Positions 3,001-6,639 of a stretch of DNA of 64,000 bases are shown piece by piece. Position 1 is the first letter of the stretch. Each line of letters starts with the position of its first letter. The notes beneath the pieces are model-generated. The model was given only the letters and a program-made list of their open reading frames with translations, ran no database searches and was not told the origin of the DNA. A program made the translations under genes and the position numbers. The stretch is from a virus. The stretch covers positions 18,833 to 82,832 of IMG/VR virus record IMGVR_UViG_3300046506_000220. One strand, written 5' to 3'.

Positions 3001-3589
3001 GGCGTTCGCCCGCTCGTTCCTGCAGTCGATCCTGTCGATCATGGAGCAGCAGGCGGCGCTCTCGCTGGTGAAGTCGATCCTGGGCGCGTTCGGGTCGGCG
3101 GGCGCCTCGTCGGCGGGTGCCGGTGCCGATGTGCAGGTTGGCGGCCCGATGGACCTCGGATCGGGCACCGTTACGGCGCTGCCTGCGATCCAGGGGGGGG
3201 TGGTTGGTGAGGGGGTGATCACCCGCGGGGGCGCGATCTCGCGCTTCGCGGGGGGTGGCCGGGTCAATGGCCCGGTCAGTACGCGTGACTCGGTGCTTGC
3301 GCTGCTCAAGCCGGGCGAAGTCGTGATGAACGACGGCGCTGTTTCGGCCGTCGGCGAAGACTTCCTGAATGGCCTGAATGCCCAGGGCAACCGCGTGATC
3401 TCGAGGAGCCAGCCGGCGCCGGCTCCGAAACGTGACCGGGTTCCGGATCACGTGAATGTCTGGGTCGTGGCACCGGACCAGAAGCCCCAGCTGGGTCCGC
3501 GCGACATCGTGGCCACCATCAGCGATGACATTACCCGTGGTGGCACGACCAAGCAGCTGATCCGGCAGGTTGCACTGGGGCAATCGTAA
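47..3589 (+). CDS. Tail tape measure protein with lytic transglycosylase (SLT) domain; probably starts upstream of the window
   Basis: Long Ala/Gln-rich helical ORF. SLT motifs AESG, SPKGAVGVAQVM, LAAYNWG and ETADY. C-terminal FAGGGRV..PGEVV motif. Lies directly before the tail tip genes. Confidence 0.9.
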   Translation: MRGAGAGVEVIGTALGGAALAGAGRYVGGLAGGLTGMAVGGFKAAAAAAEVGGQMGVIVAAAAAAVAGIAYLVRALSDTNKAFDAQVTAVKAAKDAQSESQQGMDSLGRTIETLGHKMVALNQHPELLKREIDDVAKTFEKYGEQLDRSAIHKTEDLIDALQRLHGQMGQRYELNTNIVSVQLDRLKDETLKKLADSGKDFTAATAAGPQDRINRARDTSVLVTGDTGDIVESLGDISILPSGRRSRGTLPVSGVTQANLGQLTAYLGELVDPAKVAAFQAGAAQGLNAYPEPTTADEVAKAIERIDNASGALNAARNVVNTGALNPNATLQQKQTAGGVEQLFSNYQAALNGTRVVLETLQRTLSEQVTVKGQQDQSAYERSPGVAARTAGIDRVLRAAERVLTSGSGVNRSLDDLWTAQTMAESGRRQFGRDGKPLRSPKGAVGVAQVMEGTGPEAAADAGVDWDRDKWLNDPAYNEKIGKAYMGKLMKKYRDNNTLSLAAYNWGQGNVDSLLKTAGDFRNPASGITESDFIDAITARSKSTETADYIARVGGGAGAGALGQYYALKNNREMAVAAQQAAELVQQLKAAFDLAVKDKNLPEQASITIQLDRAKTSLAAFETEYNKKREAAAPALRKVAQAEERALEAQLGALNKQINASTDIDDIQVKRDDTKALITQKYQTQIDVLKSSSQILKGPEGAPTYSAEVEAQIRSLQDELAAKLRSQDEAVAHHIETVTKALEDAKLKEQLKKDAQEFNAFMSRLGLDMKAGDTQLKVDLRRNAQPLRDDASQAAYMNDPRYSAQFSGVQRQSLSFRQAADQDVKDQADFARQQRRQLELDAFAAQAQAERITLNNRQAAQEAEVAGFRNLPESAPERERAQKALNQTLNEQLALTGRIGELERDQTKNAEDRLETESRINAKKATPLTLGEGILDANANYIRMHDETAQALDGYNQMISTTQNNLAGFFDTILTKSASAGEAMKAFARSFLQSILSIMEQQAALSLVKSILGAFGSAGASSAGAGADVQVGGPMDLGSGTVTALPAIQGGVVGEGVITRGGAISRFAGGGRVNGPVSTRDSVLALLKPGEVVMNDGAVSAVGEDFLNGLNAQGNRVISRSQPAPAPKRDRVPDHVNVWVVAPDQKPQLGPRDIVATISDDITRGGTTKQLIRQVALGQS

Positions 3590-3981
3590 TGGCCACTACC
3601 GCGACCTTCGACTTCCCGCTGCACATGGTGGAGGACAAGAACACGGACCCCGGCAACCGGGTCCAGCTGGGTAACTCCTATATGTTCGCCACGCCCCCCA
3701 CGGCGCCTACTCCGCGTGTGTTCGTCCTCTCCTTCGAGACCATGTGGCGGGGCCTGAAGGCCGACGGCACGATGGACACCACGACACTCGCGCAGACGAA
3801 CGCCGGGGCGCTGTGGGCGTTCTACCAGACATATCAGTTGCACAAGACGTTTCAATATCAGCATCCGTGGTTCGGCGCGGTCAACGTGCGCTTTAACAAG
3901 CCGCTTGAACTGCCCAAGGGCAGGAAAGGCGCCGACGGCTGGACCGAGGCCTTCAGCATTGAGCTGATCGAGCAGCCTTGA
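3589..3981 (+). CDS. Minor tail protein, lambda gpM-like (distal tail)
   Basis: 130 aa, coupled to the tape measure stop. RVQLGNSY, KTFQYQHP and a terminal IELIEQP fit the gpM pattern. Confidence 0.7.
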   Translation: MATTATFDFPLHMVEDKNTDPGNRVQLGNSYMFATPPTAPTPRVFVLSFETMWRGLKADGTMDTTTLAQTNAGALWAFYQTYQLHKTFQYQHPWFGAVNVRFNKPLELPKGRKGADGWTEAFSIELIEQP

Positions 3982-4472
3982 GAGCCGATCTTCCCGATAC
4001 CCATGTAGCCGACGCCTTCGAGCTGTCGCCCGATGCGCTGGTGGATCTGTTCAGGATCCAGCTCAACCAGCTCGGCGGCAGCACGATCATCTGCATGACG
4101 GCGCAGAAGCAGGTGGTCTGGCAAGGGATGACCTTTGAATCGATCGCCGTGAACCTGACCCAGGAAGGGGTCAGCACCAACGGGGAATGGCAACGTCCGA
4201 AATTTACCGTTGCGAATCCCGACGGGGTGTTCTCGGCATTCGTTGCACAGGGAAAAATGGACGCCGCGACGATTACCCGCTACCGCGTCAACAAGGCGGA
4301 CGTGGATGCCAACATCGGCCGCTTTGCGATGAACGTCTGGCGTCAGTCGAAGACCCTGTCGATGAGCAGGACACTGGTCACCTTCGAGCTGCGCTCGCCG
4401 CTGGACGGCCCCCAGTTCCAGCTGCCGGCCCGCGCCTTCTATCCTCCGGAGTATCCGCATGTCTCTTTGTAA
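3978..4472 (+). CDS. Minor tail protein, gpL-like
   Basis: Position after gpM. LVDLFRI, RPKFTVAN and VTFELRSPLD..QLPAR motifs are typical of gpL. Confidence 0.75.
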   Translation: MRADLPDTHVADAFELSPDALVDLFRIQLNQLGGSTIICMTAQKQVVWQGMTFESIAVNLTQEGVSTNGEWQRPKFTVANPDGVFSAFVAQGKMDAATITRYRVNKADVDANIGRFAMNVWRQSKTLSMSRTLVTFELRSPLDGPQFQLPARAFYPPEYPHVSL

Positions 4473-5739
4473 ATAACCCAACCCTAAAGGACGGAGCTTT
4501 CCACTGTATCAGGACGAACCCGATGCGTGAATTCAGGACGATTTACAGCGCCCCTTACCAAACCGATAGGGTTGGCAAAATCAGCTATGTTGACGGACGC
4601 GTTAACGTCTGAGTGCCGCTGATTTCCGCACAAACAGGAGAAGTGATGCTTAACCCGTTTTCCGATAGCCCCACATACCGAGCACGTTTGGCTGGTATAA
4701 GCAGGGTCGACATACACCACAGCCAATCCGGCACCTTGCGCCTTGTAGGCCACAAAGTCCTGCAATTGGGCGAAGGCCCAGCGATGCAGCCGTGTTTTCA
4801 TCCGCTTACCTGCTTTGATTCTGGCGCGGATATAGGTCAGGTCTTCCATGCGGATTTCGCCTGCCCCAACACGGATAGCTTCTGTAACGATGGCTTTGCT
4901 GGTTTCGTGGTTGACGTGCCTGACATGTCGTTGTTCACGCCCGGAGATAGCGCGCAGCTTTCGCTTGGCTGCACGGCTACCGTTGGCTTGGAGGCGACGA
5001 CGATGGGCAAGGTATTTGTCGCGGTTATGCCGCAGTTGTCCGCCACCAAACACCTTTCCAGTGCTGGTTGCAGCGAGGTTGTTCTCCCCAACATCAACCC
5101 CAAAAGTACCACCGGTAACAGGCGTGATATCGGGCAAGTTGAGAACAAGATTGAAATACCAGACGCCTTTTTTGATAACAAGTCTGGCTTCTTTCGGTTG
5201 TCCGTTGGCGAAAAGATTGAATTGATGCTTTCCGCCAACAAATGGAATGTGCTCGCGTCCGCCCAAAGTGAACAGGGAGAGCGCGTTACCCTTGATCGAG
5301 TATGTGCGCTTGTCGAAATTGACGGACGTGGGATGGAATGTGATAACTGGAACAGGCTTGTCCTTGTCGAATTTCTTGTTGGCTTTCAGCGTTCTATAGG
5401 CGTCAGCCACACGATGCACCGCCTGACACACCATCTGGCTACCGAGCGCCGGGAACCGTTCCCGCACCAGATAGTAAGCAAGATGGTGCAACGCAACGCG
5501 ATTCCAGCAACGCTGCTCCATTGCCATCGGAACGATGGAATTGCATGCACCCGAAAACTCAATAGTCAAAGCAGAAAGCGCCGCCGATTGTTCGGCAGTT
5601 GCCAGCAGCTTCAACGATATGGTTCGATGGGTCATTTTGTGATCATACAGTCTTGTGTGAAAAGTTCCGTGTGCTCGACCGCAATGCGGTCACTCTCGGC
5701 TTGAAGCTAGGATTTCTCAGGGTTCGAAGATGTCACTTT
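4469..5739 (-). mobile_element. IS200/IS605-family TnpB-only element (IS1341-like, no tnpA)
   Basis: Lower-GC insert between gpL and gpK. On the minus strand the right end reads GCTCCGTCCTTTAGGGTTGGGTTATTTAC and the left end follows a putative TAM TTCAT (5740-5744). Hairpin GACCGCATTGCGGTC lies upstream of tnpB. Confidence 0.8.
4484..5635 (-). CDS. tnpB: RNA-guided endonuclease TnpB
   Basis: RuvC motifs GVDVG, MEDL and HSDVNAS are all intact. Zn ribbon YTSQTCSVCG..CLCG. 383 aa. Confidence 0.95.
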   Translation of the reverse strand: MTHRTISLKLLATAEQSAALSALTIEFSGACNSIVPMAMEQRCWNRVALHHLAYYLVRERFPALGSQMVCQAVHRVADAYRTLKANKKFDKDKPVPVITFHPTSVNFDKRTYSIKGNALSLFTLGGREHIPFVGGKHQFNLFANGQPKEARLVIKKGVWYFNLVLNLPDITPVTGGTFGVDVGENNLAATSTGKVFGGGQLRHNRDKYLAHRRRLQANGSRAAKRKLRAISGREQRHVRHVNHETSKAIVTEAIRVGAGEIRMEDLTYIRARIKAGKRMKTRLHRWAFAQLQDFVAYKAQGAGLAVVYVDPAYTSQTCSVCGAIGKRVKHHFSCLCGNQRHSDVNASVNIADFANPIGLVRGAVNRPEFTHRVRPDTVESSVL

Positions 5740-6251
5740 ATGAACAATACATCGAGGGGTTTGAAGGTCTGCCCTATGTGGAAGGCCGGTCTGACTGCTA
5801 CGGCCTGGTGCGCAGGTGGATCCGCCTGAAGTACGACATCAGGTTGACCAACTACGCGCGTCCGCCCGCGTGGGAAGACGACGGATTCAACCTGCTTGGC
5901 GACTACTTCGGGCGGGAAGGTTTCGTGATCGTCATGGTTGCGCTGAACCGGCTGGAGATCGGGGACCTTCTTCTGATGCGCATCGCCAGTCGCAGCGGGG
6001 TGGCGAACCATATCGGCATTTATGTGGGCAACGGCTATGTCCTCCATCATCTTTACGGCCAGAAGTCCAGGGTTGATGCGCTCAATGAACAGTGGAAGGG
6101 ACGGGTTCTGGATGTTCTCCGGCATCCGGACATCTCAGCGAAAAACATTGAGACCGTCGAGAAGATTGACCTGATGACCCTGCTTCCCCCGCACATGAGA
6201 GAGAAATATGAACGAGCAGCAGCTGCTGGCACTGTGGAATCCGCAGGTTGA
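5730..6251 (+). CDS. NlpC/P60 tail tip protein (gpK C-terminal-like)
   Basis: DCYGLVR catalytic Cys motif and NHIGIYVGNGYVLHH. Confidence 0.9.
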   Translation: MSLYEQYIEGFEGLPYVEGRSDCYGLVRRWIRLKYDIRLTNYARPPAWEDDGFNLLGDYFGREGFVIVMVALNRLEIGDLLLMRIASRSGVANHIGIYVGNGYVLHHLYGQKSRVDALNEQWKGRVLDVLRHPDISAKNIETVEKIDLMTLLPPHMREKYERAAAAGTVESAG

Positions 6252-6639
6252 GCGTTGTGGCTTCATCCTGAGCGATGGCGAGATCGTCGAGTGTCCTAAC
6301 GTTCACGAGAATCCGGAAAAAGGCTTTGAAATCCCACTCCAGTCCATCACACAATACAGGGATCGCGTGAGCGCCACGTGGCACACGCATCCGGCGACGG
6401 GACCGAACCTCAGTGCGCAGGACTACAAGGCGTTCCAGCTCTGGCCCAGGTGGTACCACTACATCATTGGTGAACGGGAAGTCTGGTGTTTTTACGTTCG
6501 CAACAACGCGGTGATCCTGTTCGATGAAGACGATCTATCTGCATGGCTCCCTGAAGGATCGACACCCGGAGCCGATCAAGGTCCACGCGTCGAGCGTGGC
6601 GGAAGCGCTGTCGATCCTGAAGCAGCTTCCGGCGTTTGA
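6208..6639 (+). CDS. JAB/MPN metalloprotease (gpK N-terminal-like)
   Basis: ERCGFI..ECPNVH plus the complete JAMM motif HTHPATGPNLSAQD. Confidence 0.9.
   Translation: MNEQQLLALWNPQVERCGFILSDGEIVECPNVHENPEKGFEIPLQSITQYRDRVSATWHTHPATGPNLSAQDYKAFQLWPRWYHYIIGEREVWCFYVRNNAVILFDEDDLSAWLPEGSTPGADQGPRVERGGSAVDPEAASGV

Follow-up and report, generated by a model that had tools for sequence, protein, structure and literature searches.

A TnpB-only element lies silently in the overlap of two phage tail genes and carries a predicted guide matching the empty junction

Introduction

How can a mobile element settle in the overlap of two tail genes of a phage and leave the product of each gene unaltered? This question is raised by a 64,000-nt stretch of viral DNA (the window; bases 18833-82832 of the 82,832-bp IMG/VR record IMGVR_UViG_3300046506_000220), whose own positions are used as coordinates throughout. 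The record is that of a JWF-like phage of ~83 kb, in which a lambda-like tail module surrounds an insert. We found that the insert is a TnpB-only element of the IS200/IS605 type, sitting antisense in the 14-nt stop/start overlap of the tail genes L and K. It separates the two genes, and both proteins are unchanged.

Insertion sequence (IS) elements of the IS200/IS605 family are thought to insert without target duplication and to be tolerated mostly in intergenic positions or through the splicing of IStrons, which are IS607/IS605 TnpB elements located inside group I introns (PMC10690162). As reported in PMC10055086, elements of this kind insert without target-site duplication, and TnpB cuts the scarless donor joints. 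In the canonical TnpB model, as described in PMC10055086 and PMC10690162, cutting of the insert-free site is followed by repair that re-installs the element. An earlier inspection of the window from its letters alone (the sequence-only reading) had proposed that the ends of the present element rebuild both tail proteins, that a recoded left end spares it from its own guide, and that it behaves like an RNA-guided homing endonuclease. We assessed these proposals by comparison with related phages and related elements.

Results

Both tail proteins are preserved across the insertion

The L-like tail open reading frame (ORF; 3978-4472, plus strand, 164 amino acids, TTG start) ends in PEYPHVSL* and matches Pfam Phage_tail_L (E=3.7e-7); its homologue in JWF is annotated as a minor tail protein. 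The K-like tail ORF (5730-6251, plus strand, 173 amino acids) encodes an NlpC/P60 protein starting MSLYEQY. With a slash marking each junction, the left one (4455-4472) reads CCG CAT GTC TCT TT/G TAA and closes L as PHVSL*, and the right one reads GAAG ATG TCA CTT T/AT GAA and opens K as MSLYEQY, exactly the letters given in the sequence-only reading. The final base of the last Leu codon of L (G, 4469) is supplied by the right-end terminus of the element, as is the stop codon TAA (4470-4472); insertion at TT/ATGA changes the TTA TGA of L into TTG TAA. The proposal that the element ends rebuild both proteins was borne out in part: both proteins are unchanged and L is completed by the right end, but the start of K is duplicated phage DNA, as described below. 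The GC content is ~51-57% in the insert, as compared with 60-65% in the flanks.

The junction is empty in related phages

The nearest named phages, Achromobacter phages JWF and 2-1, share ~68% nucleotide identity with the window, and the match skips the insert. In both phages L overlaps K, reading CCGCATGTCTCTCTACAGTAA, and the K start MSLY lies within the end of L. Further relatives were found in IMG/VR with a degenerate pattern for the C-terminus of L, which gave 10 loci. The insert is missing from all 12 related loci (JWF, 2-1 and the 10 from IMG/VR), which hold nine distinct junction sequences, one IMG/VR locus sharing the junction of JWF. All 12 read CCGCATGTCTCTCT, and in each the K start, MSLY, falls within the terminal part of L. 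In three (L166, L169 and L171) the sequence is CATGTCTCTCTATGAACAATAC, so that L ends in HVSL* and K starts MSLYEQY, and this junction is one base off the empty site that had been reconstructed from the window. The predicted empty junction, an L ending in HVSL* overlapped by an MSLY start, is thus present throughout these insert-free relatives.

Homology between the window and the relatives extends up to 4466 and begins again at 5740. The relatives are 66-71% identical to the window, and the sample therefore contains no sibling of the same lineage. TnpB was detected in none of five related phage records (four complete), in a protein search run without a positive control. A single sequencing run was found, which probably represents the source sample; one of its contigs spans the locus, and no empty allele, joint or variant was present among them.

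Related elements define the ends, the target motif and the guide

To define the ends of the element, we used ~60 related elements from a family set of 80 loci from species genomes and 80 from metagenomes. The protein collection held 2673 TnpB homologues, of which the best was 81% identical; by source, the best relative was 54% identical in viral contigs, 73% in species genomes and 81% in metagenomes. In TnpB orientation, the relatives show a flank ending nTCAT, a 15-21-nt linker, a hairpin of 7-8 bp, GGAGG, tnpB, and a right end composed of GTGGAAAGC, a hairpin and GG(TTG/AACAG)TTAC, the family right end closing with TTTAC.

Two multicopy sets were particularly informative. In one chlamydia-like genome, all 19 copies show TTCAT directly before the left end and GTTGTTTAC closing the right end, with unrelated flanks and no duplication. 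A second set of six copies (L093-L098) has a common left end, and five of them have differing flanks ending TCAT. In L095, five extra nucleotides (TTCAG) lie between TCAT and the shared left end, which may represent an insertion at a variant transposon-associated motif (TAM) or a small irregularity of the flank. The motif nTCAT, mostly TTCAT, was found at 40 of 43 other insertion sites, and TTCAT has also been reported as the TAM of ISGst5 (PMC10055086). As the boundaries of the family are established independently by these two sets and the right end of the window element conforms to them, the right boundary, the guide and the TAM named in the sequence-only reading are correct.

Aligned with its relatives, the element has a family-consistent core of 1261 bp (4469-5729, minus strand). 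The TAM occupies 5740-5744 and reads TTCAT on the minus strand and ATGAA on the plus strand. Its TGA is the stop codon of L in the empty allele; yet 10 extra nucleotides separate it from the family-typical left end. At the right end of the element, the junction carries TTTAC in place of a TAM.

The 3' part of the putative omega RNA scaffold (4469-4598, minus strand) partly coincides with the 3' end of tnpB and closes with GGGTTATTTAC at 4469. A consensus structure for the final 130 nt, computed with RNAalifold from 34 sequences after L109 had been dropped for its false right end, comprised 35 pairs, 13 of them with compensatory changes. The window scaffold retains 32 of the 35 pairs, within the range of its relatives (32-35), and 24 of these are Watson-Crick pairs. 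An Rfam search of 4300-5900 on both strands (E<=1) matched neither an omega RNA nor an intron, in line with the earlier view that no intron is involved.

The predicted guide of 16 nt, AAAGAGACATGCGGAT (4453-4468, minus strand), is the flank directly 3' of the right end; its position follows from the family right-end boundary, and its length of ~16 nt is taken from PMC12803034. Together with TTCAT it corresponds to the reconstructed empty junction. No second target of the guide was present in the record. In the occupied allele, the letters after TTCAT show four matches to the guide, a mismatch at position 5, five further matches and then none, the very pattern that the sequence-only reading had noted. 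Cleavage by TnpB is reported to need a heteroduplex of ~12-16 bp, and TAM-proximal mismatches to block unwinding (PMC12803034); a mismatch at position 5 would weaken the initiation of the R-loop. Because complementarity stops after 10 nt, the element's own allele should be safe from the guide.

A 10-nt direct repeat restores the start of K

The 10 nt between the TAM and the family-typical left end form an imperfect direct repeat with the other side of the insert. The left copy, ATGTCTCTTT (4459-4468, plus strand), represents the K start in its original place within the end of L and has the ancestral TCT; all 12 related loci have ATGTCTCTCT at the corresponding position. The right copy, ATGTCACTTT (5730-5739, plus strand), is extra, phage-derived DNA that holds the K start codon and the first three codons. 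The two copies are identical at nine of 10 positions. A chance match of the left end was rejected, as at least nine matches in 10 would be expected with a probability of ~3e-5 (our own arithmetic, equal base frequencies). The TCA in the right copy is derived, the 12 relatives all having TCT, and both copies have T at repeat position 9 as compared with C in all 12 relatives.

The left end (5636-5729, minus strand, 94 nt) also points to a boundary at 5729/5730. Measured from TTCAT the linker would be 26 nt long, and measured from 5729 it is 16 nt long (5714-5729), as compared with 15-21 nt in the relatives. The window linker CTTCGAACCCTGAGAA and the hairpin remnant align to the relatives' CAGnnGCTCCGAGAA and hairpin. 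On the plus strand, frame 1 has no stop after 5563 (in the listed region 4400-5800) and reads the hairpin loop as TTG AAG, where L088, read by hand, has CTG AAG. This frame arrives one base past 5729/5730, where a canonical ATGA junction would place its TGA. Frame 2, which is codon-aligned with tnpB, has TGA at 5702 and TAG at 5708, both inside the left end. On account of the 9/10 match, the 26-nt linker that would otherwise be required and the frame register at 5729/5730, we judge the 10 nt to be a templated extra copy of the 5' end of the phage K gene and not a native end. These three features speak against the proposal that a native left end mimics, or was recoded from, the target.

K starts 10 nt upstream of the ATG of ATGA. 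A plain insertion would therefore cut K off from its start, which is precisely the loss that the 10-nt duplicate makes good. By contrast, the rebuilding of the L stop (G plus TAA) from the right end is a family trait and not special to this copy. Relatives tend to dock antisense at start/ATGA junctions, whereas the window copy lies in a 14-nt overlap where the loss of K is offset by the 10-nt duplication. None of the relatives has a flanking repeat; in this respect the window copy departs from the family, which makes no target duplications.

A recoding of TCT to TCA is not needed for self-protection, as the 10-nt match is already below ~12-16 bp. The change is one synonymous third-position substitution, which need not be adaptive; it could have arisen later as a neutral mutation or have been inherited as a polymorphism.

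The junction at the right end of the element is the canonical one for a site TTCAT/, and that at its left end is canonical for a site GACAT/, the latter at the K start codon. Two routes, using only known chemistry, would give the observed structure, and we make no choice between them. By flank capture, the element would first have inserted at the poor TAM GACAT/ (a base other than T at position -4 occurs at only two of 43 sites), then have been excised from the better TTCAT 10 nt outside, and have re-inserted at the TTCAT of an empty copy. Alternatively, recombination within the element would have joined a TTCAT-inserted allele with a GACAT-inserted allele. Two other origins were rejected: target duplication of the DDE type, as the ends are of the IS200/IS605 type, and a simple tandem duplication before insertion, as L would then be prolonged in another reading frame.

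TnpB is intact and the DNA hairpins are decayed

The tnpB gene (4484-5635, minus strand) is intact and encodes 383 amino acids with the Pfam domains OrfB_IS605 (PF01385, E=1.4e-9) and Cas12f1-like_TNB (PF07282, E=5.3e-21). The RuvC-type residues D181, E264 and D343 and the cysteines C318, C321, C334 and C336 are present in invariant columns of a 25-sequence alignment, every invariant residue of which is retained by the window protein. We take these residues to be the catalytic and zinc-finger residues by analogy with ISDra2. The E motif and the second D motif can be aligned with TnpB/Cas12f chains of known structure. The element is single-copy in the record, and the phage and plasmid collections gave no closer element copy, that is, no match beyond the flanks. 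A search for tnpA (Pfam Y1_Tnp) found no match in the 82.8-kb record, under conditions in which control genomes did match. The intact RuvC residues and the absence of tnpA, both noted from the letters alone, were thus confirmed.

On the minus strand (5636-5665), a possible -10-like TATGAT lies only 6 nt before the ATG of tnpB, which suggests a leaderless or near-leaderless tnpB mRNA. Relatives have TATAAT-like boxes, followed by CCTATATG, upstream of tnpB. A consensus scan for promoters and terminators gave nothing above chance.

The subterminal DNA hairpins are reduced at both ends of the window element to remnants of 2-3 bp (-1.1 kcal/mol), as compared with 5-8 bp in the relatives (nine of nine at each end). 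The left end folds as a 3-bp remnant only (~5693-5713). The hairpin positions align with those of the relatives even though no subterminal hairpin of the family kind forms, and we read the loss as decay of a family member and not as non-membership. At the right end, the helix has acquired G-T pairs, and the corresponding RNA would retain its pairing through G-U. As both Y1-transposase hairpins are decayed and tnpA is lacking, the copy is probably no longer transposable, but it may still home. A second left-end hairpin of 6 bp (GACCGC-ATT-GCGGTC, 5677-5691, minus strand) lies downstream of the decayed one, and many relatives have a hairpin at the equivalent place.

Related elements tend to dock at gene junctions

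Read on the opposite strand, the TAM nTCAT contains ATGA. The ATG within it opens a long or contig-limited ORF at 29 of 43 unique sites, as compared with 39% of 538 control TCAT sites, and 17 of 40 sites have a Shine-Dalgarno motif in the right flank, as compared with 24% of controls. In the multicopy genome, start-codon docking was seen at nine of 19 sites and at 32 of 116 control sites (28%). Start-codon docking is a tendency and not a rule; as a universal rule it was rejected, since only these fractions of the sites show it and the controls reach 39% and 28%.

Several of the docked opposite-strand ORFs have signal-peptide-like N-termini. The left end of the relatives contains CTCCG, which is GGAG on the other strand, 6-7 nt before the docked ATG. 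One relative (L005, an IMG/VR contig, TnpB 54% identical) separates an AGGAGG Shine-Dalgarno sequence from the ATG of a small ORF whose product, judged by eye, resembles a helix-turn-helix protein. Some pairs of loci share only one element flank: L093/L094 have the same right flank over at least 50 nt and different left flanks, L090/L091 show the reverse, and L107/L108 are also such a pair. This could reflect recombination between copies, strain variants or assembly joins. The left flank of L107 has an adapter-like stretch, and its apparent flank repeat was not used.

The reverse strand of the elements is unusually open. Over ~1.25 kb, 36 of 44 elements have at most one stop in the best frame, usually the right-end TAA. 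The frame of the TGA in ATGA is fully open across the element in 22 of 37 sequence clusters and has at most one stop in 26 of 37; where it is open, the other two frames hold 10-23 stops each. The codons TTA, CTA and TCA, which read as stops on the complementary strand, occur 30 times in the 16,769 codons of 44 distinct tnpB ORFs, two of which were fragments, or 1.8 per 1000. In flank ORFs, taken as stop-to-stop frames and not as curated genes, the same codons reach 14.4 per 1000 (158 ORFs of at least 150 codons) and 20.2 per 1000 (51 ORFs of similar GC content). In the window copy, the antisense frame is open for 363 codons (4613-5704, plus strand, codon-aligned with tnpB), with stops at 4610 (a TCA codon in tnpB) and at 5702 and 5708 in the decayed left-end hairpin. 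In the titles and abstract openings of the literature searched, no TnpB element is described as docking at junctions, carrying a Shine-Dalgarno sequence in its left end or keeping an antisense frame open.

Neighbouring genes

Upstream of L, a tape-measure-like ORF ends at 3589 and is followed by an ORF of 130 amino acids (3589-3981), which lies between it and L. More tail genes are located downstream of K.

Discussion

The data presented above suggest that a TnpB-only, IS1341-like element occupies the L/K overlap, is made silent by its own right end together with the 10-nt duplicate of K, and is predicted to home. We regard this as a probable account, though held with some reserve. The TnpB-omega RNA complex would cut IS-free phage siblings at the L/K junction, and the element would then be copied in as the break is repaired by recombination with a genome that carries the IS. 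In mixed infections, or between copies of the genome, this would amount to homing or marker exclusion. The element would persist through its harmlessness, possibly helped by homing. From the guide and the TAM, homing against IS-free siblings is plausible.

Several observations weigh against this account. The junctions of the sampled relatives mismatch the guide at positions 2 and 15, so that these phages are probably poor targets, and the true target allele is not in the sample. As the family makes no target duplications, the 10-nt repeat would require an exceptional two-step history. With the nearest IS relative only 81% identical in amino acids, this element's own native left end was not observed directly. 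Only with the 10 nt included does the codon-aligned frame 2 reach the TGA at 5741 in register, a weak point (chance of ~1 in 3) in favour of the outer boundary. The window copy has three antisense stops where most relatives have none, and its scaffold has the fewest Watson-Crick pairs among the 34 sequences; these two features and the decayed left end also fit a relic.

The main alternative is accordingly that the element is an inert, immobile passenger in decay, with inactive TnpB or omega RNA, which persists since the duplication spares the tail operon. The decay of both DNA hairpins, the three antisense stops (0-1 in 36 of 44 relatives), the low Watson-Crick count, the absence of tnpA from the record and the lack of an IS-free sibling among the sampled loci are all in accordance with this view. 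However, tnpB is full-length with all invariant residues kept, and the number of conserved scaffold pairs lies within that of the relatives. Moreover, the G-T pairs at the right end weaken the DNA hairpin and would keep the RNA paired through G-U, a pattern expected of selection on the RNA alone. We therefore consider an inert relic unlikely, although it deserves to be taken seriously.

A second alternative holds that the element's native left end begins with AAAGTGACAT, that K is regenerated by mimicry, and that the T at position 5 is an adaptive, self-protecting recoding. TTCAT directly precedes the 10 nt, the register with the TGA at 5741 noted above would be explained, and the position-5 mismatch would weaken R-loop initiation (PMC12803034). 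On the other hand, only 36 of the 4^10 possible 10-mers encode M-S-L plus T (our own arithmetic), no relative has a left end that starts in this way, and the linker would exceed the family range. The codon-aligned frame has two stops in the left end, and it is frame 1 that is open and fits the inner boundary. A 10-nt match already falls under the cleavage requirement reported in PMC12803034, and a synonymous third-position change is the likeliest kind of neutral change. Taken together, these points make a native, recoded end improbable.

We consider it highly improbable that TnpB has been domesticated and that, in the manner of TldRs, it binds under RNA guidance at the start of K as a repressor or roadblock and does not act as a nuclease. 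The occupied allele does keep the TAM and nine of 10 guide-matching bases there, and TnpB may bind targets with TAM-distal mismatches without cutting them (PMC12803034), but the mismatch at position 5 disfavours binding, and the window protein keeps D181, E264 and D343, whereas TldRs are described as nuclease-dead (PMC10705468). That the insert is a chimeric metagenome join is hardly credible: it was seen in only one sample, but a second assembly of the same run (a Logan contig of 34.7 kb) covers 3900-6300 with 0 differences, both junctions are family-typical, and both ORFs are exactly preserved.

On the account that we prefer, a silent element with predicted homing, the locus resembles known IS200/IS605 TnpB elements, such as ISDra2 and ISGst of Geobacillus stearothermophilus, including tnpA-less copies. 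It shares with them OrfB_IS605, RuvC and a zinc ribbon, an RNA scaffold partly coincident with the 3' end of tnpB and terminating at the right end, a guide formed by the flank beyond it, a TAM of 5 nt next to the left end, and a scarless empty site that is predicted to be cut. It differs from them in its 10-nt imperfect direct repeat, in its decayed end hairpins and in its position inside a 14-nt overlap of two tail genes whose ORFs are preserved. Like IStrons, it is a TnpB transposon that limits its cost to host genes and keeps a homing guide; unlike them, it does so in its DNA and at translation, in that the stop is rebuilt, the start is duplicated and an antisense frame is open, and not by splicing of RNA.

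Free-standing homing endonuclease genes of the T4 seg/mob type lie between phage genes. The present tnpB is likewise a nuclease gene between essential phage genes, predicted to cut a co-infecting insert-free allele and to be copied in by repair. In contrast to the seg/mob type, it is transposon-derived, and its recognition would be by an RNA guide and a TAM and not by protein.

We tentatively propose, as a possible wider interpretation, that the clade is specialised for operons. Its members would dock antisense at stop/start junctions, provide a rebuilt stop and a ribosome-binding site, and offer a stop-free reverse frame that lets translation reach the next gene. The window copy would then show how longer overlaps can be colonised, by carrying or duplicating the first codons of the downstream gene, and RNA-guided homing in a tail operon would give above-Mendelian inheritance after transposability had been lost.

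The signs that the clade is adapted to operon junctions are strong and can be counted, as in the scarcity of TTA, CTA and TCA codons in tnpB. Besides intergenic insertion and IStron splicing, the locus represents a third route of tolerance, in which an insertion in the overlap of essential genes is silenced by the element's own terminus and a 10-nt duplication. If its TnpB is active, the element would be a natural, phage-borne, RNA-guided homing nuclease that has outlived its dependence on a transposase.

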